A DNA stretch of 64,000 bases from an uncultured delta proteobacterium (GTDB lineage Bacteria > Myxococcota_A > Polyangia > Polyangiales > Polyangiaceae). The notes below the pieces were generated by a model. It ran no database searches. It worked only from the letters and a program-made list of their open reading frames with translations, and was not told the origin of the DNA. The stretch lies in the NCBI GenBank assembly GCA_963716725.1, contig CAVQUB010000002.1:192001-256000 (forward strand), in the 5' to 3' direction. The position numbers and the translations under genes are program-made. This document shows, in pieces, positions 1 through 54,997 of this stretch. Each line of letters starts with the position of its first letter. The first letter of the stretch is position 1.

Positions 1-740
1 ACGCTGCCCTGTCGAGCCTCGAGCACTTCCACTCGCTGACCCCCGAGGAGCGCAGCGGCTGCGGAGCCACCGCTCGTCGTGGACAGCACCGCGCCCGAGC
101 TCTGCACGAGCTTTTCTGGAAGCCGCTTCTGCTTCGTCAGCAGCTCCCGCGCTGGGAAGTAGGCTGGGCTCAAGTCGAAATCGGCGCACGGCACGGCGTC
201 CTCGACGATCTCGGGAGAAGCCAGCCAACCCTTCGCATCAACCGCCACTCGAAGCTCTCCGGCTGCGCCATTCGACCAGCGCACGGGCGCGTGACCCTTG
301 GGCACCAAGAACCCGCTCAGGACCCGCGGGCGCGCGAGGAAGATGGAGACCTCGGCCGCTGGCAAGAGCCCGCGCACGAGCACCTCGCCGTCGTCGAAGG
401 TTCCGACGGCCGCCCGAGCAGGTCCGGGGGGCAGACTGATCGCCGTCGGCACGCTCAACACGCTGGCAAACGGCGTCATGCCGTCGTCGAGGCGGAGGGA
501 GCCCCGGCTGCTCCAGGAGCTCGCGCTGAAGCGGCAGGCCGGTGCTTTGGGTTCGACGATCTCGGGCAGCGTGGCGGGAGGAGGAGCCTCGGGAAGCGCC
601 GGCGAGTCCGCCCCGGAGGCGACGGGGATTTCGACCCGAGTAGGAGCCTCCGTCGCGCTCCGCTGCTCGTGCCGCGGGGCACACGCTACGGCCGCCAAGA
701 AGAGCGCGCCGCCGACCTGCCCAATCGACCCAAGTCCCAC
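1..740 (-). CDS. Putative lipoprotein, partial (runs off the window start)
   Basis: My own minus-strand translation from GTG at 740 is open to base 1: VGLGSIGQVGGALFLAAVACAPRHEQ..., with a lipobox-like AVAC and a Pro-rich linker. Not in the ORF track because the stop is outside the window. Confidence 0.55.
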   Translation of the reverse strand, partial: MGLGSIGQVGGALFLAAVACAPRHEQRSATEAPTRVEIPVASGADSPALPEAPPPATLPEIVEPKAPACRFSASSWSSRGSLRLDDGMTPFASVLSVPTAISLPPGPARAAVGTFDDGEVLVRGLLPAAEVSIFLARPRVLSGFLVPKGHAPVRWSNGAAGELRVAVDAKGWLASPEIVEDAVPCADFDLSPAYFPARELLTKQKRLPEKLVQSSGAVLSTTSGGSAAAALLGGQRVEVLEARQGS

Positions 741-873
741 GTCACCACCAGAGTACATCGATGCGCGTCAGACCGCCGAAATGCCAATTCCCACCGGCTC
801 CGAGGACGTCCCTGTCCGTCGCCAGCACTCGAGGCTTGCGCATCTTGCCCCCCGGATGAATATTGCCCGCCCC

Positions 874-1515
874 ATGGCCCTCAAAGCGGTGACCGAGCGA
901 GATTTCGAGCAAGAGGTCCTGGCGTCCGAGCTCCCGGTGTTGCTCGAGTTCGGCGCCGAGTGGTGTGGGCCCTGCAAGGTCGTCGCGCCAGAGCTCGAGG
1001 CGCTCTCGCGCGAGCTGGAGGGCAAGGCCAAGATCGTCACGGTGGACATCGACCGCGCCCCTAACTTGGCGCGCGAAATGGGCGTGCAGTCGGTCCCAAC
1101 CTTCGTGGTCTTTCATCAGGGTCGTCCGGTGAACGGACAGGTGGGCGCGCTCAAGAAGGCGCAGCTGCTCGAGATGCTCGACCCTTTCTTGCCGCGGGCC
1201 GCCGGCGCGCTCAAGCCAGAAGAAGTGGGCGCGCTCTTGGCGAAGCGCCAGGTGAGCGCCGTGGATACCCGCGAAGCAGCTGCCTTTCGCCGGGCACACC
1301 TGCCCGGCGCGATCAACATGCCGCTCGAGGAGATCAACACCCGGCTTGCGGAGCTGCACATGCTGCCCGGCGCGCCGGTGCTCTACTGTCGCAGCGGGGA
1401 CAAGACCAAAGAGCTGGCCCAAGAGCTGGCCGGGCAGGGCGTGCCCGTCAGCTTCCTGGATGGCGGACTCCTGGCCTGGGAGGCGTCCTCGCTGCCCATC
1501 GAGCGTCCGGACTGA
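874..1515 (+). CDS. trxA: Thioredoxin fused to a C-terminal rhodanese domain
   Basis: MALKAVTERDFEQEVL...WCGPC...VQSVPTF thioredoxin fold, then rhodanese motifs DTRE...HLPGA...VLYCRSG...LDGG. Start moved to ATG 874. Confidence 0.9.
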   Translation: MALKAVTERDFEQEVLASELPVLLEFGAEWCGPCKVVAPELEALSRELEGKAKIVTVDIDRAPNLAREMGVQSVPTFVVFHQGRPVNGQVGALKKAQLLEMLDPFLPRAAGALKPEEVGALLAKRQVSAVDTREAAAFRRAHLPGAINMPLEEINTRLAELHMLPGAPVLYCRSGDKTKELAQELAGQGVPVSFLDGGLLAWEASSLPIERPD

Positions 1516-9075: not shown

Positions 9076-9274
9076 GCCGCGCGCCAGGGACGCGCCTCGG
9101 AGCAAGAATCCCCAGCGCCCACCCGTCGCGGCCTGCGGCGGGCGCTTCCGGTGCGGGTTTCGCCGGGAAAATCGCCGACCGCGGCCCAACGGCCCTGGCC
9201 AACGCCGGCCCAACTGGTAAAGATACAGGCCGCCCCGCGCGCAAGGCTCAGCGGGTGGGCGCATCAAGGTGATC

Positions 9275-10253
9275 ATGACTTCATCCCTCCGACTGGCCTC
9301 CGCGTTCTTGCTCTTCTCCAGCGTCGGTATCTGCGGTTGCAGCTCCGGCGACAGCGGTGGTGGCTCCGGCGGCGGTGCGGGTGGCAGCGGCGGCACCGTC
9401 TCGACCGGCGGCTCGGGCGGTTCCGGGGGCGCAGGCGGAAGCGGCGGAAGCACTTCGTGTTCCGAAGGTCCGGGCTTCCCCTCGAGCGCCCCCCAGCAGC
9501 CGGTCGCAGAGCTCACCGCCACCATTCTGGATCTCGGAGGCGCGCCAGCCGCAAACGTCGGCGTTCAGCTCTGTGGTCTCGATCTCTGCATCAACGGCAG
9601 CACCACCGACCAGGGCGTCGTGTGTTCGGACAAGGGAACGGGCTTCTGCACGCCGGGCCTGACCTCGACGGATAGTTTCAAGCTGCCCGCGTTCAAATAC
9701 GGCGACGGCATCGGGTTCGTGAAGTTCGCGCAGCTCCTGCCTGCGGGCACCACCAAGCACAACGTCGGCACCGTGATGACCGCCAAGCTACCGGATGTCG
9801 CGCAAGGCGTCGCGCTGACGCCCGGCGGGTCCGCGACCAGCAGCGGCGTCGTGCTGACCTTGGCGGCGGGCGCCAAAGATCACTATCGACGAGCTGACCT
9901 TCGACACGCCCGAGCTCCAGAAATTCCGCGCTGCGGAGGTGCCCATCGCCAAGGCTCCGCCGGCCGTAGACAAGAGCGCCGGCTTCGAGATCATCGTGGG
10001 CACGACGCCCATCAACACCGAGCTCTGCCCGCACGGCGGGCTGAGCGTACCGAACACCGCCGGCTGGGCAGCGGACACCGAGGTCGAGTTCTGGCTCCAC
10101 GGCGTGGAGGCGAGCGAAGACAAACTGTGGGCGCCCTACGGGGGCTGGGCCAAGGTCAGCGGGGGCAAGGTGAGCTCCGACGGCAAGAGCGTCGTCACCC
10201 ACGACGGCGAGGGCGTTCCCGTCCTGGGCGTCTTCGGCATCAAGAAGAAGTGA
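9275..10253 (+). CDS. Gly/Ser-linker lipoprotein, frameshift near 9876
   Basis: Signal peptide with ICGC lipobox. An extra A in GCCAAAGATC joins the 9275 frame to the 9939..10253 frame (...GAKITIDELTFDTPELQKFRAAEVP...VFGIKKK). Confidence 0.7.
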
Positions 10254-10939
10254 TGCGAGTCCGCGTTCGCCCCTGCGGGTTCGTCGCAGCGCTCGCGCTC
10301 GGCGCAGCGGCCTGCGGGACCAACCGCCCCGACATCCCCGACTACCTGCTGCAGGACGACTCGGGTTCGACGGCGGGCTATCCGAGCGGGCCCTACGCCA
10401 AAGACATCAAAAGCGACATCGGCCGGCCCATCGCCAACATCCAGTTCCAAAAGGGCTGGCTCGACCCCATGGCCGAGGGCTACGACCTGGCCAAGCTCGT
10501 GCCCGTAGCGCTCGCGGACTTCTACGACCCGGATGGCAGCAAGGGGATCGAGCTGATCCTGCTCAACACCGCGGCGGGCTGGTGCGGCGCCTGCAAGAAC
10601 GAGCACGCGGGCACCGGCAAGAGCCCTTCCCTCGGCGAGCACGCCGCGAGCCTCGCGCCTCGGGGCTTCGTGGCATTGAGCGCGCTGTTCGAAGACGGCA
10701 ACTTCAACCCCGCGCAAGACAAGCACCTGGTGGCCTGGGCCAAGACCTACGAGACCAATTTCCCCTTCGTGCTCGACCCCGAGAACCAACTCGGCGGCAC
10801 CTTCGGCGTCGATCAGACGGCGCCGCTCAACCTCGTCGTCGACGCCAAGACCATGAAGGTCCTGTTCGGCACGACCGGCGACAAGGGCGAAGTCATCTGG
10901 CCCTTCGTCGAGGGCGAGCTCGACAAGCGCGGAAAGTAG
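10253..10939 (+). CDS. Redoxin/TlpA-like CxxC lipoprotein
   Basis: TGATG coupling with the upstream gene, lipobox AAAC, LLNTAAGWCGAC, FPFVLDP, PLNLVVD. Confidence 0.85.
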   Translation: MRVRVRPCGFVAALALGAAACGTNRPDIPDYLLQDDSGSTAGYPSGPYAKDIKSDIGRPIANIQFQKGWLDPMAEGYDLAKLVPVALADFYDPDGSKGIELILLNTAAGWCGACKNEHAGTGKSPSLGEHAASLAPRGFVALSALFEDGNFNPAQDKHLVAWAKTYETNFPFVLDPENQLGGTFGVDQTAPLNLVVDAKTMKVLFGTTGDKGEVIWPFVEGELDKRGK

Positions 10940-10943
10940 CCCG

Positions 10944-12833
10944 ATGCGCAGCCGGCTCGGTCACGCCGCCCTCTCGGCAGCGCTGGGGATCACGCTCTCG
11001 TCCCCGGCGCACGCCCTCGAGCCGGGCAAGATCGGCGACGACGCGGTGCACCTGGACGTGACCAACGCGACCAGCGTGCTCTACAACTTCGACAACCGCG
11101 ACACGCGCCCGCTCGACGTGCCCACCCGCGCCAACGACGAGTGGGGCATGTGGTACAATCGCCTCAACCTGCAGGCGTCTTGGGGCAAGGTCACCGCCGG
11201 GCTCCGCATCGACAACGCCTGGTTTTATCGGTCGCCCTACCCCGAGGCCATCGCCCTCGACGTGGTCGAGACACGGCCCGCGGGCGGCGGCCTCGGCGAT
11301 GCCCAGCTCTTCCGCCAAAAGTTCGACGAGGCTGGGGCCGAGCTGTCGAACCGCTACATCAACTGGGTCTACCCGTCGAAATACTACGTCGGCTACACCA
11401 CGCGCGACGTCGAGCTGACGGCCGGAGACTTCTACGCCTCCCTCGGGCGCGGCTTCGTGCTCAGCGTGCGCAAGATGGACGAGCTGGCGAGCGACACCAC
11501 GGTCCGCGGCGCCCGCGTGACCGGCCGCGTGAACGCCGGCCCGCTCAAGCTCCGGCTCACGGCCCTGGGTGGCGAGATGAACCCGCTGCGCATCGACGAG
11601 TCCAGCGGCCGATACCTGGGCGTGCACGACAGCGTGACCCCGAGCTGGCTGGTTGCCACCGAGGCCGGCATGCCCCGAGCGGTGGACACCGACTTCCTGC
11701 GGGCCTCCCCCAGCTACTCGCCCGATCGCCTGGCCGCCGCGCAAATCGAGATCGCGCCCGAGGGCCTCAAGCTCGGCACTCAGGCTTCGTTCCTGCGGCG
11801 CCAAGCTCCGCTGACCTCGGACGTGATCCGCCAGGCCGACACCGTGCTCACCGGCAGCCAGTCCATCGAGGTGGCCGACTTCGGCGGCCACGGCGACGGC
11901 TACGTCGAGGTGGCGATGCAGAGCCTGGACGACGCCGACCGGGACTCGGCGAGCTCCGGCGGCGAGCTGCTGGGCGGCAAGAAGGGCTACGCGGTCTACG
12001 CGGCGGCCACGTTGATCACGGATCCACTGAGCTTCAGCTTCGAGGGCAAGCACTACCGACGCTTCTTTGCCCTCGCCGCCAACGTGGAAACGGCGCGGGC
12101 CCGGGAGTTCTCCTTGGTTCAGTACAGCGCGCCGCCGACCACCGAGGCCTTCTGGGTCGACTCCGAGTTCGAGGGCTTCAACACCTGCGTCACCGGCGGT
12201 CGCCTCAAGGGCGACGTTCACCTCGGCAAGGACGAGAGCGTGTTCGCCTGGGTCGGGCACTATCGAACTTGGGCCGAGCGCTCCCTCAATGAGCGTTGCG
12301 ACACCGCCGACGCCAACCTGAATCGAGTCTGGGATCTGGCGACCGGGATGGAGATCACCAGTCAGAAGCGCAAGAGCCGCGCGAACCTCACGGTCGGCGC
12401 ACGCATCGACCAGGCCGAAGAAGAGATCTCCACCACCACCGGCGCCCAGACCCACCTGTACTACCAGGAGAGCTACGCGCGCTACGACGTGATCCGACAC
12501 CTCGGCGGGCCCTTCTCGCTGCAGCTCCAGGGCTGGCACCGGCGGCGGCACCAGGTCGTGGGCGGCCCCGAGCACCCGTGGTTCGAAGGCCAGCACCTGA
12601 CCGGTGTGGACTTCGCCCCCTACCTCTCGGCGGCCTTCGGGGTGGAATACAGCACCAACCCCGCCGTCCCCGACACCTACTTCAACGGCCAGGTCGCCTA
12701 CAAGATCACGCAGTCGTCGAGCGTGAGCGGCTTCGTCGGCCAGCGCCGCGGCGCGCTGCGCTGCGTGGGCGGGGTCTGCCGCATCTACCCAGCCTTCGAG
12801 GGCGCGCGCATCGATGCCACGGTGAGGTTCTGA
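10944..12833 (+). CDS. DUF6029-like outer-membrane beta-barrel protein
   Basis: Sec signal peptide (AHA), GDFYASLGRGFVL, C-terminal GQRRGALRCVGGVCRIYPAFEG...RF ending in Phe. Confidence 0.75.
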   Translation: MRSRLGHAALSAALGITLSSPAHALEPGKIGDDAVHLDVTNATSVLYNFDNRDTRPLDVPTRANDEWGMWYNRLNLQASWGKVTAGLRIDNAWFYRSPYPEAIALDVVETRPAGGGLGDAQLFRQKFDEAGAELSNRYINWVYPSKYYVGYTTRDVELTAGDFYASLGRGFVLSVRKMDELASDTTVRGARVTGRVNAGPLKLRLTALGGEMNPLRIDESSGRYLGVHDSVTPSWLVATEAGMPRAVDTDFLRASPSYSPDRLAAAQIEIAPEGLKLGTQASFLRRQAPLTSDVIRQADTVLTGSQSIEVADFGGHGDGYVEVAMQSLDDADRDSASSGGELLGGKKGYAVYAAATLITDPLSFSFEGKHYRRFFALAANVETARAREFSLVQYSAPPTTEAFWVDSEFEGFNTCVTGGRLKGDVHLGKDESVFAWVGHYRTWAERSLNERCDTADANLNRVWDLATGMEITSQKRKSRANLTVGARIDQAEEEISTTTGAQTHLYYQESYARYDVIRHLGGPFSLQLQGWHRRRHQVVGGPEHPWFEGQHLTGVDFAPYLSAAFGVEYSTNPAVPDTYFNGQVAYKITQSSSVSGFVGQRRGALRCVGGVCRIYPAFEGARIDATVRF

Positions 12834-14203
12834 TCCACAGCTTTCGTCGCGAGCTTCGCACGACTGTCTCTCTCGCGACTCCGCTGGTGCTCGGCCATTT
12901 CTCCACCGGCCTCATCAGCTTCGTAGACAGCGTGATCGCGGGTCATCACGGCACGCGCACCCTGGCCTCCGTCACCATCGGGAGCGCCCTGATGTGGCTG
13001 CCGCTCACGGTCGTGCTCGGCACCCTGATGAGCGTGCCGCCCGCGGTGTCCCAGCTCGCAGGCGCCGGGCGTCGGGACGAGATCGGCCCGCTCTTCCGCC
13101 AGGCGCTGTGGGTGGCGCTCGGCTTCGGGCCGCTGCTCTTCGCCTACCTCACCTTCGTGCCCAGCGCGCTCGGACTCATGGGCATCTCGCCGGAGATCGC
13201 CCCGGGCACCACCGGCTTCTTGCACGGCGTCCGCTGGGGCCTTCCGGGCTTCACGCTCTTTTTATGCCTTCGTTACCTGGCGGACGGGCTGCACCACACG
13301 CTGCCCTCGATGGTGCTGGCGATCGCGGGGCTGTTCTTGCTGGTGCCCACCGGCTACGCGCTGACCTTCGGCGCCTTCGGTCTGCCGGAGCTCGGGGCCA
13401 AGGGCCTCGGCATCGCCTCGGCCGTGGTCATGTGGTTCCAGGCCATCGCGCTCGCGCTGTATCTGGCGAAGGCGCGGCGCTTCCGCGAGTACGGCCTCTT
13501 CAGTCGCTTCGATCCGCCGCGCCAGGCCGAGATCCGGGAGCTGCTCGCGGTCGGAGCTCCGATCGGCTTCACGGTACTGATGGAAGGCAGCCTCTTCATC
13601 TTCGCCTCGCTGCTCATCGGCAGGCTCGGCGAGGTCCCCGCCGCGGCGCACCAAATCGCCATCAACGTGGCCAGTCTCTGTTTCATGATCCCGCTCGGGT
13701 TGGCCGAGGCCACGACGGTGCGTGTTGGACACGCCGTGGGCTCGGGCGACAGCCTCGGGATCCGACGCGCCGCCCTCGCAGGCTTCGTGGTCATGCTCGG
13801 AACGCAGGCCGTGACGGCCACGGCGCTCATCCTGGGCCGACACTCGGTGGTCACGCTCTACTCGAGGGACGTCGCCGTCGGCACCCTGGCCACCGGCCTC
13901 ATCGCCTACGCCGCGGCTTTCCAATTCCCCGACGGCGCCCAGGTGCTCTCGAACGGCGCCCTGCGCGGCCTGAAGGACACCCGCCGGCCGATGCTGCTGG
14001 CTGCCCTCGCGTACTGGGGCGTAGGCATTCCGCTCGGCGCCGGCCTCGCGCTCGGCGCCGGCCTCGGGCCCAAAGGCATGTGGATCGGGATGATCGCCGG
14101 GCTCAGCGTCGCGGCGGTGTTGCTCGCAACGCGCTTCGTGCGCGTGTCGGCGAACGCGCCCCCAAAGCGACCGCTCGTGCGGGGTGCTTCCGTGACAGAA
14201 TAG
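12830..14203 (+). CDS. MATE family efflux transporter (NorM-like)
   Basis: LATPLVLG...VDSVIAGH, ELGAKGLGIA, AAHQIAINVASLCFMIPLG, FQFPDGAQV...GALRGLKDTR. Start uncertain (CTG 12830). Confidence 0.88.
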   Translation: MIHSFRRELRTTVSLATPLVLGHFSTGLISFVDSVIAGHHGTRTLASVTIGSALMWLPLTVVLGTLMSVPPAVSQLAGAGRRDEIGPLFRQALWVALGFGPLLFAYLTFVPSALGLMGISPEIAPGTTGFLHGVRWGLPGFTLFLCLRYLADGLHHTLPSMVLAIAGLFLLVPTGYALTFGAFGLPELGAKGLGIASAVVMWFQAIALALYLAKARRFREYGLFSRFDPPRQAEIRELLAVGAPIGFTVLMEGSLFIFASLLIGRLGEVPAAAHQIAINVASLCFMIPLGLAEATTVRVGHAVGSGDSLGIRRAALAGFVVMLGTQAVTATALILGRHSVVTLYSRDVAVGTLATGLIAYAAAFQFPDGAQVLSNGALRGLKDTRRPMLLAALAYWGVGIPLGAGLALGAGLGPKGMWIGMIAGLSVAAVLLATRFVRVSANAPPKRPLVRGASVTE

Positions 14204-14241
14204 GGCGCATCAGCCAGCATGCTGGGTGGGAGGAGTTCCGG

Positions 14242-15489
14242 ATGACAGCCTCGAGACGAGCAGGTGGGATCTTCGTGGGGCTCGCCCTGGCGGCAGCCTG
14301 CTCCGCGAGCGGCGGCGCGGGCGACGGCGACAACGCGGGCGGCGCTCCCGGCGGCGGCAGCTCAGGGTCCGGCGGCAGCGGCGGGCTCAGCGTCGGCGGC
14401 ACGTCCGGCGACGGTGGCAGCGTCAATTTCGACTCGGGCGTTGGGGGCTCCGGCGGCGACATCGGCGACTCCGGATGTTCCACCTACACGGACGAAGCGA
14501 AGCAGACCTACGAGCCCGCGGACATCATCTGGGCCGTCGACACCTCCGGCAGCATGGTCGAAGAAGCGGCCGCCGTTCAGGCCAACATCAACGCCTTCAG
14601 TCAGCAGATCTCCGCGACCGGGATCGACGTGCACGTGGTGATGCTGGCGGCCTACCCATTTTTGATCCTGCCGGGCATCTGCGTGCCCGCGCCCCTCGGG
14701 TCGGGACTGTGCCCGTCGGCGGGCTCAGACACCAAGCTGCCCAACTTCTGGCACCACCCGACGGGCGTCGTCGAGAGCGTCGACGCCGCCTTGCGCCTGG
14801 TGCAACTCTTCCCCGACTACAAGTTCATGCTGCGGCCCGGCGTGTTCAAATACGTCGTGGTCGTCACCGACGACGACTCCAAGAACAACCCCAACAGCTC
14901 GGGCAACGCCGGAAAATACGACGACAACCCCAGCGGTTTCATCACGGATTTCACCAACCTCGACCCGATGATGAAAGACGGCGCCGGGGGCCGCATGTGG
15001 AAGCTGTCGTCGATCTACTCGTTTTCGCAGTGCTCGAACGCCGCCAACATCGGCCAGGTCTGGAAGCAGATCGTCAACACCACCGGAGGAGTGCACGGCG
15101 ACATCTGCAACTGCCCCCCGGGACAGACTCAAGCCTGCGCGCAGACCTTCCAGAAGGTCTTCGACGAGCTGGCCAAGAAGATCATCGCCGGCGCCAAGCC
15201 CCTGGCCTGCGAGTGGACGATCCCGGCGCCGGAGCCCGGCAAGACCCTCGATCCGAACAAGGTGAACGTCGAGTTCGTCGACCAGGCCAGCGGAACGCCA
15301 AAGACGATCTACCACGTCAACGACGCAGCGGCCTGCGACGGGACGCTGGGCGGCTGGTACTACAACGACAACAAGACACCGACCACGATCAAGCTCTGCC
15401 CCGCGAGCTGCGCCGAGGTGACCGGCGCCGCGCAGGGCAGCAAGATCAACGTCGTGTTCGGCTGCGCGACCCTGAACATCCCGAAGTGA
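14242..15489 (+). CDS. vWA-domain lipoprotein
   Basis: AGGAG RBS, lipobox AAAC, Gly-rich linker, MIDAS DTSGS, VVVVTDDDS, C-terminal GWYYND...IKLCPASC. Confidence 0.85.
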   Translation: MTASRRAGGIFVGLALAAACSASGGAGDGDNAGGAPGGGSSGSGGSGGLSVGGTSGDGGSVNFDSGVGGSGGDIGDSGCSTYTDEAKQTYEPADIIWAVDTSGSMVEEAAAVQANINAFSQQISATGIDVHVVMLAAYPFLILPGICVPAPLGSGLCPSAGSDTKLPNFWHHPTGVVESVDAALRLVQLFPDYKFMLRPGVFKYVVVVTDDDSKNNPNSSGNAGKYDDNPSGFITDFTNLDPMMKDGAGGRMWKLSSIYSFSQCSNAANIGQVWKQIVNTTGGVHGDICNCPPGQTQACAQTFQKVFDELAKKIIAGAKPLACEWTIPAPEPGKTLDPNKVNVEFVDQASGTPKTIYHVNDAAACDGTLGGWYYNDNKTPTTIKLCPASCAEVTGAAQGSKINVVFGCATLNIPK

Positions 15490-15525: not shown

Positions 15526-16065
15526 CTACTTGATCCCGAGGGCCGCTTCGACGTCGCGATCCACCGCGCTCGCGTCGCCGGTGGTGTAGCCCTCTTTCTT
15601 CGCGATGATGCCGCCATCGCGCCCGATCAGCACGCTGAAGGGCGCGCTGGTCTTGGGATTGTAGAGGGCGACCACGCGGGTCTCTTGATCGAGCAAGATC
15701 GGAAACGAAACCCCGAGCTTCGAGACGGTGCTCTTGACCCCAGCGATGGACTCCGGGCCGTCGATGGAGATGCCGAGCACCACGAAGCCCTTGTCCTTGT
15801 GCTTCTTGTAGACCTCGTCGAGGTGCGGCATCGAGGCCAGGCAGGGATCACAGAACGTGGCCCAGAAGTCGATCAAGACCACGTCTTTGCCCAGGTGATC
15901 CGAGAGCCGAACGGTCTTGCCGTCGAGGGTCGAGAGCTCGAAATCCGGGGGGCGCGCCCCGCCGCTCTGGGCGCCGGCGGCTCCGGGAGTCGAGCCGCTA
16001 CAGCTCGCGCAACCGAGCGCTCCGAGCATCACGGCGGCGCGGAGCGCGATGGCGATGGGCCTCAT
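15526..16065 (-). CDS. TlpA disulfide reductase family lipoprotein
   Basis: PDFELSTLDGKTVRLSD, IDFWATFCDPC, FPILLD. The ATG overlaps the upstream stop codon. Confidence 0.9.
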   Translation of the reverse strand: MRPIAIALRAAVMLGALGCASCSGSTPGAAGAQSGGARPPDFELSTLDGKTVRLSDHLGKDVVLIDFWATFCDPCLASMPHLDEVYKKHKDKGFVVLGISIDGPESIAGVKSTVSKLGVSFPILLDQETRVVALYNPKTSAPFSVLIGRDGGIIAKKEGYTTGDASAVDRDVEAALGIK

Positions 16066-16935: not shown

Positions 16936-18507
16936 ATGATCACTTCGAGACTGGGGTCGGACAAGGGACTGGGCCGCCGCGTACGGCGTGCCCTCGGGAT
17001 GCTGGTCGGACTGCTCGCCGTGTCCACGCTCGGCCTCGCGGCCTGCGGCGGCGACGAAGCCACGCCCTGCGAAGGGGTGACCGTCAACGGCGAGTGCCAG
17101 CAGAAGTGCTCCGAGGCCGTCTGCGCGGCGCAAGGCATGAAGTGCGTGGGCAACTCCTGCGGCCAGACCTGCGCCGATCCGGTCAAGGACTGCCCAGCGG
17201 GCAAGTACTGCTTTGCGCTGAACACCGACGACGGCACGGCGGGTCAGTATTGCGCCTGGGCGCCCTTCACCAAGGGCGGCAAGCTGCTCGGCCAGTACGA
17301 TACCCAGTGCGCGGCCGACGATCAGTGCGACGCGCTGCGCGGCTACAAATGCCTGGCGGGGACCTGCAAGCTCACGGGCTGCACGTCGAACGCGGCCTGC
17401 GCGGAGATCCCGGGCGCTTGCGTCAAGGATCCGAGCGGCGACCCGACCAAGAACTTCTGCGAGAAGGGCGACAAGCGCCTGGGCCTCGGTGAGGCGTGCC
17501 AGAAGTCGAGCGAGTGCGACGGCGATCTGAACCTGGGCTGCGTGAGCGGCGCCTGCGCCTACGTCGGCTGCGCCACCCACTCGGACTGCGCGAGCGTGGG
17601 CGAGTGCAAGTCAGCCAAGACCGCCGAAGGACAAGACGTGCTCGCCTGCGTCAAGGGCACCACCTATCCCAAGGGGCAGTTTGGCACGTCGTGTCCGGGT
17701 GGTTCGACAGCGAAGGAATGCGACGAAGCCGCCGGCTTCGTCTGCATCGGCGCCGGCGTCGGTGACGTCGACGCCTACTGCACCGATACGGGCTGCAAGG
17801 CCGACGGCGACTGCGCCGCGGGCTACGAGTGCCAGGCCCTGCGCACCAGCAAGAAGCCCTGCGCGGACGCCTGCGGGGTCACCGGCGCCACCGGCGGGGG
17901 CTGCGTGGCAGCTGACGACATCGGTGCCGGGAAAGAATACTCGTGCGGCGCCACCAGCCTGCTGCGCAACATCTGCATGAAGCGCTCGTTCTGCTCCGAG
18001 TGCCAGAACGACGACGACTGCCGCACGCAGCCGAACCAGATCTGCGCCAGCGACGGCAAGGGCCACAAGTACTGCACGGTGCTCTGCGAGCCTGCGCAGT
18101 CCAACGCCTGCGTGTGGGGCAGCGCGGCCGAATGCGCCGTGCACGACACCGCCCTCGGCAAGCCGACCTGCGCGCACCGCTTCGGCGCCTGCAAAGGCAC
18201 CGGCAAGACCTGCGAACCTTGCGTGGACGACGCCGACTGCCCCACCGGGTTTTGCACCGGCTCGGACTACACCGGCGAGCGCTACTGCGTGGACATCACG
18301 CCGAGCTGCGACTGCACTGGCCTCCAGCTCACCCAAGACACGCTGTGCGTGGGCGGCGGCTGCCCGACCTCGCCCAGCGGCATCGCGACCAACTGCTATG
18401 GCGGGTCGAAAATGTCGACGAGCCCATATTACAAAAAGTGCATTGGCGCCGATATCCTCGAGGGCAAGAAGTCCCCGTACACCAAGCCCGGCTGCTGGCC
18501 GGAGTGA
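16936..18507 (+). CDS. Cys-rich repeat lipoprotein
   Basis: Lipobox LAAC. 61 Cys by hand count, in repeated C-x4-5-C modules. Alternative start at ATG 16999. Confidence 0.85.
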   Translation: MITSRLGSDKGLGRRVRRALGMLVGLLAVSTLGLAACGGDEATPCEGVTVNGECQQKCSEAVCAAQGMKCVGNSCGQTCADPVKDCPAGKYCFALNTDDGTAGQYCAWAPFTKGGKLLGQYDTQCAADDQCDALRGYKCLAGTCKLTGCTSNAACAEIPGACVKDPSGDPTKNFCEKGDKRLGLGEACQKSSECDGDLNLGCVSGACAYVGCATHSDCASVGECKSAKTAEGQDVLACVKGTTYPKGQFGTSCPGGSTAKECDEAAGFVCIGAGVGDVDAYCTDTGCKADGDCAAGYECQALRTSKKPCADACGVTGATGGGCVAADDIGAGKEYSCGATSLLRNICMKRSFCSECQNDDDCRTQPNQICASDGKGHKYCTVLCEPAQSNACVWGSAAECAVHDTALGKPTCAHRFGACKGTGKTCEPCVDDADCPTGFCTGSDYTGERYCVDITPSCDCTGLQLTQDTLCVGGGCPTSPSGIATNCYGGSKMSTSPYYKKCIGADILEGKKSPYTKPGCWPE

Positions 18508-18697
18508 GCCGTAGCCCAGGCGTGGTAGCGGGGACCTGGGCCGCGCCCGCCGTATTGCCACGCCGCTAGTTTCGTCGTACGAGCCCGCCCGTGGCGCTGC
18601 ATTGCATGCGCTTCAGGGGCCCGTCGTCCAACGGCTGGGTCCGGCCGGGGGAGCATCCGGCGGACGGCCACGACTGAATCAATAGGAGAGCTTTATC

Positions 18698-19927
18698 ATG
18701 ATGAAGACCACGGTATTTGGGGCGGCTGCCCTAGTCGGCGCGGGCCTGCTGGCCTCGATGAGCGGCTGTGACAAGATTGAAGAGGCGCAGGGCGCGGTTT
18801 GCTGCACCGAGTTCCAGGTGGGCGGCAACATCTCGGCCGACATCGGCGGGAGCGCCAGCGCGCAGGTGAGCGCCCAGGCCGTGGCAGATTTCGCCGGCAT
18901 CGCTTCAGCTGCCGTGGGCGACTTGACCGCCGCCTGCCGCTCCATCGCGCAGGATCTGGACGTGGACTCGGCCACCCAGGACGCCGCGGAAGCGACCGAA
19001 GACAAGCGCGCGAAGATGAAGGCTTGGTGCACCGCTGCGACGACCGCCATCGGCTCGTTCAAGGCGACGGCCAAGGGAACGCTCACCATCTCGGTAACGC
19101 CGCCGGTGTGTGAGGCCTCGCTCAGCGCAAAGGCCAATTGCCAGGCCAAGTGCTCGGTGGACGGCAAGTGCGATCTCAAGGCCACGCCGCCGACCTGCGA
19201 GGGCGGCAGCCTCGAAGTGGCGTGCAAGGGTGAGTGCACCGCCAAGGCGGGCGCGACGCTGAAGTGCGAAGGCACCTGCTCGGGCGAGTGCACCGGCGAG
19301 TGCACGGCCGAGGGCGGCGTCGAGTGCGAAGGCAAGTGCGAAGGCACCTGCGAGGCCTCGGGCACCGGCACCGGCACCGGAATCCAGGCCGACGGCACCT
19401 GCAAGGGCGTGTGCAAGGGCTCGTGCTCCGTCACCGCTCCCAAGGCGACCTGCTCGGGCAGCTGCAAGGGCTCTTGCAGTGCGAGCTGCACGGGCACGGC
19501 CACCGCGTCGGTCAAGTGCGACGGCACCTGCAGTGCGGACTACGAGCCGCTCAAGTGCACCGGCGGCGAGCTCAAGGGCGGCTGCTCGGTGGACGCCAAG
19601 TGCGACGCCAACTGCGACGCCAGCGTCCAGGCCAAGGCCGAGTGCCGGCCGCCTCAGATCAGCGTGACCTTCTCGGGCGCGGCTGACGCTCAAGCGGCGG
19701 GCAAGCTCCAGGCGACCCTGAAGGCGAACCTGGGCGTGATCTACGGCTTCAAGGCCCGCCTCGAGGGCATGGGCAAGATCGCCGCGAACCTCACGGCCAA
19801 CGTGGACGCAGTGGTCGACATCAAGGCCGCCTGCATCCCGGCCATCATCGCCGCGGCGGCTGACGCCGCCGACGACGTGAAGGAGTCCGTGACGGTCTCC
19901 GGCAGCATCGTCGCCTCGGTCAAGTAA
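18698..19927 (+). CDS. Lipoprotein with a mirror-symmetric Cys ladder (CxGxC repeats)
   Basis: AGGAG RBS, lipobox MSGC, central CxxxC runs flanked by Ala-rich helical segments. Confidence 0.88.
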   Translation: MMKTTVFGAAALVGAGLLASMSGCDKIEEAQGAVCCTEFQVGGNISADIGGSASAQVSAQAVADFAGIASAAVGDLTAACRSIAQDLDVDSATQDAAEATEDKRAKMKAWCTAATTAIGSFKATAKGTLTISVTPPVCEASLSAKANCQAKCSVDGKCDLKATPPTCEGGSLEVACKGECTAKAGATLKCEGTCSGECTGECTAEGGVECEGKCEGTCEASGTGTGTGIQADGTCKGVCKGSCSVTAPKATCSGSCKGSCSASCTGTATASVKCDGTCSADYEPLKCTGGELKGGCSVDAKCDANCDASVQAKAECRPPQISVTFSGAADAQAAGKLQATLKANLGVIYGFKARLEGMGKIAANLTANVDAVVDIKAACIPAIIAAAADAADDVKESVTVSGSIVASVK

Positions 19928-19950
19928 GCGACCAGCACTAGAATGCACGC

Positions 19951-19993
19951 TCCGGCGCGTGTCCCTCCGTGGGATGCGCGCCGGAAGTGTTTT
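19951..19993 (+). terminator. Probable intrinsic terminator
   Basis: 15-bp stem TCCGGCGCGTGTCCC / GGGATGCGCGCCGGA (two G-U pairs), 5-nt loop, then AGTGTTTT. Confidence 0.65.
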
Positions 19994-20043
19994 GTGGCGC
20001 GACGTTTGACGAACGCTGGCTTCCGCCCTACGGACTCGCCGTC

Positions 20044-20940
20044 ATGTCTAGCAACGAATCGCCCGGTCCCGTTTCAGGTCGCCCCATCTCCGAAGGCGAT
20101 CCCGTCCCCGGCGCGAAGAACGTCGTCTTGGTGATGAGCGGCAAGGGCGGCGTCGGCAAGAGCACCGTCGCGGCCAACCTGACCCTGGCGCTGTCTCGGC
20201 GCGGCTATCGCGTGGGGCTGCTCGACGCCGACATGTACGGCCCGAGCGTGCCGACCATGTTCGGAATCTCCGGCCAGCCCATGACCGACGGCAAACGCAT
20301 CAAGCCCCTCGAGCGCTTCGGTGTGAAGCTCATGAGCATCGGCTTTCTGCTCGACGATCCCAAGGCCGCCATCGTCTGGCGCGGCCCGATGCTGCACGGC
20401 GCCCTGCTGCAGTTCCTGAAAGACGTGGACTGGGGCGAGCTCGACTACCTGCTGCTCGATTTGCCGCCCGGCACCGGCGACGTGGCGCTCACCCTGTCGC
20501 AGCAGCTCCGCACCAACGGCGCGGTCATCGTCACCACCCCCCAAGAGGTCGCGCTGCAAGACGTCTACAAGTCCGTCAGCATGTGCCAGAAGGTCGGCAT
20601 CCCGATCACCGGAGTAGTGGAGAACGAGAGCTACTTCATCTGCGACGGGTGCGACAAACGCCACGAACCCTTCGGGTCCGGAGGGGGCGCAAAGGTCGCG
20701 GAAATGGCCGGGGCCCCCCTGCTCGGGCAGATCCCGATGCACTCCAGCGTGCGCGAGTGGGGTGACGCCGGCACGCCTCTGGTGCAAGCGTCGCCGGGAT
20801 CCGAGGTGGCCAAGGCCTTCGTGGAGCTCGCCGATCGGTTGATCGTGCAGCTCGACCGCGACAACGCCGCGGCCGCCGGAGGAGTGCAGATCGACCGCAG
20901 CGGCGGGGTCAACCGGCACTTGCCAATTTCCAGATCGTGA
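20044..20940 (+). CDS. mrp: Mrp/ApbC/NBP35 Fe-S carrier ATPase
   Basis: SGKGGVGKST, DADMYGPSVP, WRGPM, DLPPGTGD, VVENES...CDGC. Confidence 0.92.
   Translation: MSSNESPGPVSGRPISEGDPVPGAKNVVLVMSGKGGVGKSTVAANLTLALSRRGYRVGLLDADMYGPSVPTMFGISGQPMTDGKRIKPLERFGVKLMSIGFLLDDPKAAIVWRGPMLHGALLQFLKDVDWGELDYLLLDLPPGTGDVALTLSQQLRTNGAVIVTTPQEVALQDVYKSVSMCQKVGIPITGVVENESYFICDGCDKRHEPFGSGGGAKVAEMAGAPLLGQIPMHSSVREWGDAGTPLVQASPGSEVAKAFVELADRLIVQLDRDNAAAAGGVQIDRSGGVNRHLPISRS

Positions 20941-53827: not shown

Positions 53828-54997
<1,170 letters not shown>

Follow-up and report, generated by a model that had tools for sequence, protein, structure and literature searches.

A predicted lipoprotein with a palindromic cysteine ladder from an uncultured member of the Polyangiaceae

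A 64,000-nucleotide stretch of DNA from an uncultured delta proteobacterium of the Polyangiaceae (GenBank assembly GCA_963716725.1, contig CAVQUB010000002.1, positions 192,001–256,000; hereafter the window, from whose first letter all positions are counted) carries, at 18698–19927 on the forward strand, a gene for a predicted lipoprotein in which 28 cysteines stand in an almost perfectly palindromic order. The reading that we favor, and consider somewhat probable as a whole, is that the product is a lipid-anchored modular ladder whose chain runs out and back and is stapled by disulfides; it may serve the cell envelope as a projecting or spacing structure. This reading is carried by the cysteine pattern and its conservation, by coupled changes of the two arms, by antiparallel contact between the arms and by a confidently predicted fold that found no match in the structure databases searched; disulfides rather than metal ligation and a zigzag course of the arms would complete it. 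The gene, its signals and the layout of the protein, partly drawn from AlphaFold2 (AF2) models, are as follows.

18684–18690, forward strand: Shine-Dalgarno-like AGGAGAG, 7 nucleotides upstream of the ATG, read from the sequence.
18698–19927, forward strand: coding sequence of the ladder lipoprotein, an open reading frame (ORF) of 409 amino acids (aa), stop codon included.
18698–18769, forward strand: predicted signal peptide and lipobox LLASMSGC, with Cys24 as the predicted lipidated residue, from the sequence.
18770–19072, forward strand: tether (aa 25–52, with the vicinal pair C35–C36) and N-terminal helices (aa 53–125, with C80 and C111), from AF2 secondary structure.
19073–19681, forward strand: ladder domain (aa 126–328), predicted to be inserted between two helical halves, from AF2 of the ladder alone.
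19109–19645, forward strand: 28 cysteines with palindromic spacing (C138...C218 and C235...C316), from the translation.
19121–19153, forward strand: predicted short helix (aa 142–152) with C148 and C152, from AF2 and the covariation of A146–A308 and K151–D303.
19196–19213, forward strand: arm-1 CxGGxL turn motif, C167 EGGS L172, with a two-residue strand break at G169–G170 in AF2.
19352–19399, forward strand: tip loop (aa 219–234, EASGTGTGTGIQADGT) between C218 and C235, containing GTGTGTG, from the sequence.
19556–19573, forward strand: arm-2 CxGGxL turn motif, C287 TGGE L292, from AF2 and the 34-row alignment, with covariation of T166/E168 with E291/K293.
19595–19633, forward strand: predicted short helix (aa 300–312) with C302 and C306, partner of helix 142–152, from AF2 and covariation.
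19682–19924, forward strand: predicted C-terminal helices (aa 329–409) with the invariant C379, from AF2 and the alignment.
19951–19995, forward strand: terminator-like hairpin (15 pairs, 11 of them G–C; 19951–19985 with a T-rich tail), then AGTGTTTTGT, from the hairpin scan.

The G + C content at third codon positions (GC3) is 0.90 in the forward frame of the gene, and this value together with hundreds of homologs points to the forward frame of 18698–19927 as the coding frame. Long antisense ORFs, as seen in the ladder region, are usual at such a G + C content, which is 68.4% for the window. The N-terminus MMKTTVFGAAALVGAGLLASMSGC reads as a lipoprotein signal with the lipobox cysteine at position 24 (motif [LVI][ASTVI][GAS]C, read by eye); Cys24 occurs in every one of 34 sequences and reaches at least 90% conservation across a 134-row alignment. 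The whole protein contains 34 Cys, one Trp and two Tyr. Its ladder is made of Cys, Gly, Lys, Ser, Thr, Ala and Glu, with no His and almost no large hydrophobic residues. No second ladder copy was found among the proteins of the 64-kb window. A hairpin scan of 18400–20200 returned one terminator-like site, compared with a shuffle mean of 1.1, which is weak evidence by itself. An Mrp/ApbC-type ATPase ORF (19969–20940, forward strand) with a GTG at 19969 overlaps this hairpin; its Pfam match does not begin before residue 49, and the true start therefore probably lies farther downstream.

The gaps between the 28 cysteines are 9, 3, 5, 8, 8, 3, 9, 3, 3, 3, 7, 3, 3 [16] 3, 3, 8, 3, 3, 3, 9, 3, 8, 8, 5, 3, 9, and reversal of the order alters only one 7 and one 8. 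An earlier note, made from the letters alone, had described this near-perfect palindrome, and translation confirmed it with exact agreement of its limits at nucleotides 19109–19645. The mirrored flanks (TISVTPPVC at aa 130–138 and CRPPQISVT at aa 316–324), the GTGTGTG tip loop, the lipoprotein signal and the flanking Ala-rich helices that it listed were likewise all present. The arm-2 CxGGxL motif reads as a direct repeat of the arm-1 motif, in the same chain direction, and not as a mirror copy. Among 224 full-length homologs, the palindromic half-length (tolerance 1) reaches 10 gaps or more in 210, and the maximum in 4480 within-protein gap shuffles was 9. In the 34 close homologs, all 34 cysteine columns are invariant (34/34), as are G169, G170 and L172.

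The two arms were observed to change together. In P0108 and P0112, a two-residue insertion in the arm-1 7-gap is accompanied by another in the mirrored arm-2 8-gap. Across homologs the number of rungs varies from approximately 7 to 19 (19 in P0197) with the palindrome kept, and the tip loop measures 3–19 residues. P0185 has the pattern 9 3 5 8 8 3 3 9 3 3 3 3 3 3 [8] plus its mirror, and the short forms P0184, P0186, P0193 and P0199 retain only 9 3 5 8 [9] 8 5 3 9, their hairpin closing at the C167/C287 pair. The 831-aa P0188 contains two complete palindromic modules in tandem, one ladder having 13 consecutive CxxxC-spaced cysteines per arm. Cysteines were also lost as mirror pairs: C138 with C316 (P0141 and P0170), C152 with C302 (P0190), C158 with C296 ("12-gap" forms such as P0182) and C198 with C256 (P0158, P0168 and P0176, three similar proteins that may represent one event).

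Among 104 representatives, arm lengths correlate with r = 0.997; arms are equal in 62 and the palindrome is exact in 58. Fifty distinct block architectures were recorded, and the block vector is the same in both arms in 44 of them, a count that is descriptive only, as the arm definition used favors symmetry. An unbiased test was therefore based on a tree built from helical-domain columns only, with cysteines counted in the two alignment halves of the ladder. Both arms have the same count in 154 of 161 rows, and at least 46 and at least 45 changes were placed on this tree. For arm 1 with at least 15 cysteines, seven independent supported contrasts were obtained, arm 2 differing in the same direction in 6.9 and in the opposite direction in 0 (median p 0.016); for arm 1 with at most 13 cysteines, the five contrasts gave 4.5 in the same direction and 0 in the opposite one (p 0.06). 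The look for symmetric gain and loss of cysteine blocks in homologs, which the earlier note had proposed, thus speaks for paired arms. When the ladder was taken as the longest run of cysteine gaps of at most 20, its cysteine number was even in 100 of the 104 representatives, and 40 of these have an odd number per arm. Pairing solely inside one arm is therefore impossible in these 40, which speaks against the local CxxxC pairing raised as the counter-case to a cross-strand ladder.

Residue covariation was analyzed by mean-field direct-coupling analysis of 281 family members (effective number 211), and a rerun on the 186 members without a ladder indel (effective number 120) gave the same result. 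Of 42 cross-arm couplings with z ≥ 5, 40 fall within 20 residues of i + j = 454, a zone that holds 36% of cells by chance. Since the couplings cluster on this antidiagonal, the arms are antiparallel and touching. At the base (i ≤ 160), 10 of 11 couplings lie at most two residues from 454, for example, L129–F325, S132–S322, T134–Q320, V137–R317, A146–A308, K151–D303 and G156–V298, and the base is accordingly modeled here as a true ribbon and, after it, two antiparallel helices that would hold C148–C306 and C152–C302. The strongest coupling of the whole protein is G196–A262 (z 17–22), a Gly/Ala size swap with GA in 122, GG in 69, AG in 67 and AA in 9 of the 281 members. Both G196 (19283–19285) and A262 (19481–19483) are the second residue of a two-residue break after the mirror-paired C194 and C260. 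K183–T277 is a charge swap. The terminal helices covary with each other (D86–T340, L76–I348, A59–I383 and F65–M358), and the helical body is coupled to the ladder base (S54–D299, Q56–K151, A78–R317 and V133–Y349).

AF2 was run on the whole protein with the 134-row alignment, and a second model was made of the ladder alone (aa 126–328). The whole-protein model has a mean predicted local distance difference test score (pLDDT) of 90.0 and a predicted template modeling score (pTM) of 0.83, with pLDDT below 50 only at aa 1–27, the signal peptide and start of the tether. The ladder alone scored 92.9 and 0.75, respectively, with secondary structure unchanged. Terminal helices were predicted at aa 53–86, 91–98, 103–125, 331–367, 369–374 and 377–408, so that Ala-rich helices flank the ladder on both sides. 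Arm 1 consists of strands 128–134 and 137–141, helix 142–152, and strands 166–168, 171–176, 179–181, 188–194, 197–210 and 213–219; the tip loop spans aa 220–233; and arm 2 consists of strands 234–243, 255–260, 263–265, 272–274, 282–288 and 291–293, helix 300–312, and strands 315–317 and 320–326. The AF2 model and the covariation of the N- and C-terminal helices indicate that the ladder probably interrupts a single helical bundle to which both termini contribute. The projection from a lipid-anchored helical base that had been suggested from the letters is borne out by this predicted bundle on a lipoprotein.

Each predicted strand break of arm 1 covers two residues, the second of them Gly (G169–G170, K177–G178, S195–G196 and E211–G212). 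Breaks of the two arms are opposed: 169–170 stands opposite 289–290, the Gly–Gly of the two CxGGxL motifs, and 195–196 opposite 261–262, with G196 and A262. Strand lengths around the breaks are 3/6/3 and 7/14/7 (3 + 3 = 6 and 7 + 7 = 14), and in arm 2 residues 258–260 match 263–265. Because the strand lengths add up around two-residue breaks, the arms can be read as tight hairpins folding back on themselves, and they would zigzag into compact two-fold-like modules, a knob at C167/C287 and a distal CxGxC block, rather than form a straight ribbon. With Foldseek at E ≤ 1e-3, no match of the full model was found in the PDB (best E 0.048) or in BFVD (best 2e-3, phage fibre-like, template modeling (TM) score ≤ 0.15 with a very large root-mean-square deviation), and none of the ladder-only model in the PDB (best 0.22); the lack of a similar fold thus refers to PDB and BFVD only. 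The family profile also gave no match to PDB sequences at E ≤ 1.

In the reading that we favor, the gene product would be exported and lipid-anchored, and its N- and C-terminal thirds would build one helical bundle. The middle approximately 200 residues would leave the bundle, reach the tip loop and come back antiparallel, with residue i beside approximately 454 − i. The 28 invariant cysteines would be placed so that each meets a cysteine of the opposite arm, and approximately 14 cross-arm disulfides would replace a hydrophobic core. From the bundle outward, the order would be a two-stranded ribbon closed by C138–C316, a short helix pair stapled by C148–C306 and C152–C302, a knob formed by a tight CxGGxL hairpin in either arm, and a distal CxGxC block with turns of the arms at the x-Gly positions. 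In evolution, the rod would be lengthened or shortened by adding or removing cysteines, and with them rungs, in both arms together. The exact partners in the distal half of the ladder are putative.

A word-indexed protein search gave 1362 homologs at E ≤ 1e-3 among 8000 candidates scored. The best 120 share 59–79% identity and measure 397–417 aa; the few that are named are a "hypothetical protein" from Polyangiaceae or Labilithrix metagenome-assembled genomes (MAGs). An exhaustive search of 50%-identity representatives gave 608 clusters at E ≤ 1e-3, of which 347 reach E ≤ 1e-10 and 90 reach E ≤ 1e-30. Scanning one genome per species yielded 75 loci, all from MAGs, of which 65 are titled Myxococcales, Polyangiaceae, Polyangia, Polyangiales, Labilithrix, Kofleriaceae or Myxococcota and 10 only Proteobacteria, Deltaproteobacteria or delta proteobacterium. 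Every genomic match with a lineage name belongs to Polyangia-type myxobacteria. Several MAGs contain two or more ladder loci, and tandem paralogs occur in L005, L018, L030, L031, L032 and L052 (and L011), with up to four in L032. At E ≤ 1, Pfam and NCBIfam gave no family for the ladder protein except a sub-threshold match to Bactofilin (Pfam), and no other Pfam domain is fused in 13 longer homologs. The whole protein found only its own unnamed clusters in the ESM Atlas, and the ladder alone had no usable match among the named clusters. A literature search of titles and abstracts for disulfide ladders, CXXXC lipoproteins and palindromic cysteine spacing returned nothing on the ladder family.

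The neighborhood of the ladder gene contains two further predicted lipoproteins and several thiol- or sulfur-related genes.

298–1512, forward strand: thioredoxin–rhodanese fusion, from the Pfam scan.
9269–10939, forward strand: 556-aa protein with a weak AhpC/TSA match, from the Pfam scan.
10944–12833, forward strand: DUF6029-like protein, of which only the C-terminal end fits the model; a relative occurs in 13 of 75 loci.
12994–15489, forward strand: 831-aa protein without a family; a relative occurs in 6 of 75 loci.
15526–16065, reverse strand: TlpA/ResA-like thioredoxin-fold lipoprotein (lipobox LGALGC, motif WATFCDPC), with Pfam matches to AhpC-TSA (4.7e-22) and Redoxin (9.2e-21).
16936–18507, forward strand: lipoprotein of 523 aa, 61 of them Cys (lipobox LGLAAC), without a family in Pfam or NCBIfam, directly upstream of the ladder gene.
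53831–54997, reverse strand: rhodanese–ThiF protein, from the Pfam scan.

The cysteines of the 523-aa lipoprotein are spaced in a direct-repeat-like manner (e.g., 5 7 4 4 5 6 12 / 5 7 4 4 5 5 13), and in 15 of the 75 loci tblastn of the window proteins placed a relative immediately upstream of the ladder gene. The TlpA/ResA-like gene, whose start was set at an internal Met as the listed ORF begins 120 codons too early, lies 2.6 kb upstream of the ladder gene, divergent from both Cys-rich lipoprotein genes; a redoxin of this kind occurs in 17 of 75 loci by tblastn. Redoxin and 61-Cys lipoprotein were found also where the ladder protein is only 40–45% identical. The DUF6029-like gene and the 831-aa gene stand upstream of the redoxin. 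The window carries further thiol- and sulfur-handling genes at 298–1512, 9269–10939 and 53831–54997. Two contexts recur across the loci: one runs DUF6029-like gene, redoxin (reverse strand), 523-aa Cys-rich lipoprotein, ladder, Mrp/ApbC-type ATPase and S1-domain protein, and the other aminotransferase, ladder, 154-aa 18-Cys secreted protein, aldehyde dehydrogenase and Mrp. At least 10 loci have the 18-Cys protein 3′ of the ladder gene. The ladder gene thus sits amid housekeeping genes, often beside exported Cys-rich proteins, with its own ribosome-binding site and terminator. Of the strong ribosome-binding site, own terminator and nearby redoxins claimed earlier, the AGGAGAG, the hairpin at 19951–19985 and the thioredoxin-fold gene are all there; the terminator drew little strength from the scan alone.

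The cysteines of the ladder most likely form approximately 14 cross-arm disulfides in the oxidizing envelope. A lipoprotein export signal, an even number of ladder cysteines, their pairwise loss, the lack of His and a confident AF2 model without metal argue for disulfides. The gaps before and after the tip take only the values 3, 5, 7, 8 and 9, and the ladder contains no CxC, CC or CxxC clusters. As for sorting, the residue at +2 after the lipidated cysteine is Ser, Gly, Asp or Glu and very rarely Lys (2 of 207 homologs), and Ala stands at +7 in 68 of 207, the query included. In Myxococcus xanthus, Lys at +2 marks inner-membrane lipoproteins and Ala at +7 matrix lipoproteins (PMC3222651). By this analogy, the residues weakly suggest that the ladder lipoprotein may reside at the outer membrane or beyond, and the M. 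xanthus rule may not hold in Polyangia.

Several observations weigh against the reading that we favor. For residues 161–219, only 3 of 28 strong couplings lie within two residues of 454, and two bands appear instead, one at 457–461 (G196–A262, E168–K293, K183–T277, E179–S279, T199–S259 and E201–K257) and one at 441–448 (E191–K257, K189–S259, E197–T251 and E179–S263). A register of 458 would oppose C180/C278, C194/C264, C198/C260 and C202/C256, and it would strand C176, C190, C252 and C274 without an obvious partner, E191–K273 hinting at C190/C274; it also conflicts with the mirror co-loss of C198 and C256, seen in three related proteins and maybe a single event. The second band could reflect contacts between protomers. 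The number of mature cysteines is odd in 157 of 207 full-length homologs, and this is tied to a vicinal Cys–Cys, at aa 35–36 (18800–18805) in the query, 11 residues after the lipid anchor: an odd number is found in 136 of 152 homologs with the vicinal pair and an even one in 34 of the 55 that lack it. One cysteine near the anchor would therefore be free or bonded to another molecule. TlpA/ResA-like proteins, a class which we take to be periplasmic reductants, would fit reduced metal-binding cysteines as well as disulfide proofreading. No dedicated partner gene was found among the recurrent neighbors in the 75 loci, whose contexts are mostly housekeeping, and no fused domain in the longer homologs hints at a function.

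A topology meeting both the mirror cysteine pairs and register 458 of the neighboring residues could not be built. Local-hairpin sandwich and closed-barrel models were checked by hand against the covariation, and none satisfied all cysteine pairs.

The literal form of the hairpin, as it was proposed earlier, is a straight, extended two-stranded beta-hairpin of 81 residues per arm, approximately 25 nm long, with 14 in-register disulfides at i + j = 454. The palindromic spacing, the mirror-pair loss of cysteines and the base register of 454 in 10 of 11 strong couplings agree with it, the C-x-G-x period of 4 sets Cys and Gly on one strand face, and the weak Foldseek matches to phage fibre-like proteins, with their very large deviations, hint at an elongated model. 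We nevertheless consider it improbable. C148/C152 and C302/C306 lie in AF2 helices, the predicted strands are broken at two-residue x-Gly turns with lengths of 3/6/3 and 7/14/7 that fit local hairpins, a cysteine spacing of nine residues (gap 8) flips the strand face, and the mid-ladder couplings mostly sit 4–8 residues off the cysteine register of 454. Single arm-2 residues couple to arm-1 residues 10–12 apart (K257 with E191 and with E201/T203; S259 with K189 and with T199), which is impossible on a straight strand in a monomer, and couplings within one arm occur at a separation of 12–18 (S171–K189, S171–K183 and A175–L188). A contact-graph upper bound from base to tip gave 184–213 Å, compared with 299 Å along the chain, a loose upper limit only that depends on few contacts (213 Å at z ≥ 7 and 89 Å at z ≥ 5). 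Of the antiparallel stapled hairpin, therefore, the out-and-back course with touching arms stands on the symmetric indels, correlated cysteine loss and covariation, whereas the straight 25-nm ribbon does not, nor does a regular two-stranded beta-ribbon throughout, given helices 142–152 and 300–312, the x-Gly turns and the intra-arm couplings.

Three other accounts concern the chemistry or the overall shape of the ladder. Kept reduced, the cysteines could make up a thiolate ladder of the metallothionein or copper-storage type, by which Cu(I), Zn or Cd would be captured in the envelope; the composition resembles that of metallothioneins, the putative reductant is a neighbor in 17 of 75 loci, and an odd total of cysteines is unexpected for a purely disulfide-bonded protein. 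This account is quite unlikely, as the signal exports the protein into an oxidizing compartment, ladder cysteines are even in 100 of 104 representatives and lost pairwise, the clusters CxC, CC and CxxC are missing from the ladder together with His, AF2 arrives with confidence at a regular beta structure that needs no metal, no metal-binding Pfam or NCBIfam family matched at E ≤ 1, and no metal-transport gene recurs beside the ladder gene in the 75 loci. A compact beta-solenoid, bactofilin-like or beetle antifreeze-like, would be a two-start helix with disulfides crossing its core. It draws on recurring Bactofilin scores (PF04519; the query with 17.2 bits, E 0.0062, at aa 197–281, and P0265, the best homolog tested, with 27.6 bits, both below the gathering threshold of 27.9 bits), on the Bactofilin label carried by 12–24% of members of the nearest ESM Atlas clusters, on a composition like that of a disulfide-cored antifreeze protein, and on covariation bands approximately 5–6 residues either side of the cysteine register, as we derive for mirror cysteines that look at each other across a core with 10–12 residues per turn. 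All these scores remain under the curated cut-off, however, and uninterrupted AF2 strands of 7, 10 and 14 residues are too long for a 12-residue turn. Three cysteines per turn at 120 degrees would, on geometric grounds, not all bridge such a core, Foldseek gave no solenoid at E ≤ 1e-3, and the rung number shifts in steps of one; a solenoid therefore appears very unlikely.

Highly improbable, in our estimate, is a substrate of a radical-SAM maturase, similar to a peptide made by the ribosome and then post-translationally modified (RiPP) with a "Cxxx repeat" and joined by thioether or other cross-links instead of disulfides. A precomputed PF27846 label is found on 27 of the 120 best homologs, and the corresponding tSAM_targ_Cxxx_rpt label on 13–24% of members of the nearest Atlas clusters. 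The name of this family presumably implies a radical-SAM maturase nearby, but no Radical_SAM or other maturase domain was detected in 50 different candidate ORFs of the window that were scanned, no maturase is among the recurrent neighbors in the 75 loci, and NCBIfam gave no match at E ≤ 1. With 409 aa and a fold, the lipoprotein is no short precursor peptide, and the simplest explanation of the minority label is agreement in period and composition. In the literature searched, no paper on PF27846 was found, and none joins "CXXX repeat" with "radical SAM". Both PF27846 and PF04519 share a period-4 Cys or Gly-rich repeat with the ladder, which would give weak profile matches, sub-threshold or in a minority of members; bactofilins are cytoplasmic polymers not known to carry cysteine ladders, unlike the ladder lipoprotein.

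The stapled ladder that we favor can be compared with several known systems. Tachyplesin/gomesin-type hairpins and the cyclic cystine ladder of theta-defensins are secreted antimicrobials of 17–18 residues with 2–3 rungs. They resemble the ladder in their antiparallel segments, parallel cross-strand disulfides, mirrored spacing and CxxxC-turn-CxxxC order, whereas the ladder would reach 14 rungs, in a domain of 200 residues that includes helices, knobs and Gly turns and is set in a helical lipoprotein; no sequence relation was detected, no search having been aimed at these peptides. Plant alpha-hairpinins are similar to the predicted base helices 142–152 and 300–312, each with a CxxxC and antiparallel to the other, but this likeness concerns only 2 of the 14 rungs, and the ladder helices are 150 residues apart in sequence and not joined by a short loop; no homology to the hairpinins emerged. 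The Tenebrio antifreeze protein shares repeats rich in Cys, Thr, Ser, Gly and Ala and disulfides in place of a hydrophobic core; its repeats are direct, 12 residues long, with disulfides within the coil, whereas the ladder has mirrored spacing and putative partners on different arms, and Foldseek gave no match in the PDB at E ≤ 1e-3. The myxobacterial surface receptor TraA is an envelope protein whose Cys-rich repeats serve as a rigid stalk. Its repeats are tandem, direct and one-directional with a head domain, whereas the ladder tip has no head, and no NCBIfam match was obtained at E ≤ 1. Flagellin and FlgL gave weak Foldseek matches (E 0.13–0.3, TM ≤ 0.22) that are not significant; a terminal-helix bundle with an inserted beta domain is common to both, but flagellin-type inserts are not known to be disulfide-stapled, unlike the predicted ladder, and there is no sequence relation. 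The ladder protein therefore appears to apply known principles, stapling and disulfides in place of a core, in a new family with a predicted fold unmatched in PDB and BFVD. Its size, modularity, insertion in a helical lipoprotein and symmetric evolution of rungs had no described counterpart in the literature found.

With regard to function, we tentatively suggest that the ladder protein acts structurally, projecting from the envelope or spacing it, with specific contacts made by its conserved helical body. Such an element would be rigid and resistant to proteases and heat, located at the outer membrane or surface, with its reach set by the number of rungs. A bolder view, which is conceivable rather than probable, regards it as a new architecture, a "telescopic" rod whose chain is folded back and held by approximately 14 disulfides with no hydrophobic core, the paralog sets of Polyangia serving, at graded lengths, as rulers of the envelope or spikes on the surface. 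Several paralogs per genome, often in tandem, would fit such a rod, and the unpaired conserved cysteine near the anchor might link rods to each other or to a partner covalently.

A protein with 14 disulfides and a tunable length could be of interest as a scaffold, its value for now being structural and evolutionary. If the favored reading is true, the ladder proteins constitute a large undescribed family of bacterial envelope proteins, with hundreds of sequence clusters and a predicted fold that has no solved counterpart, and they follow an unusually clear evolutionary rule in which the halves of a single chain vary jointly, one rung at a time. The family would then offer a test case for the folding of disulfide-only cores in the envelope, for the stepwise lengthening of a fold and for what is carried on or beneath the outer membrane by uncultivated Polyangia.

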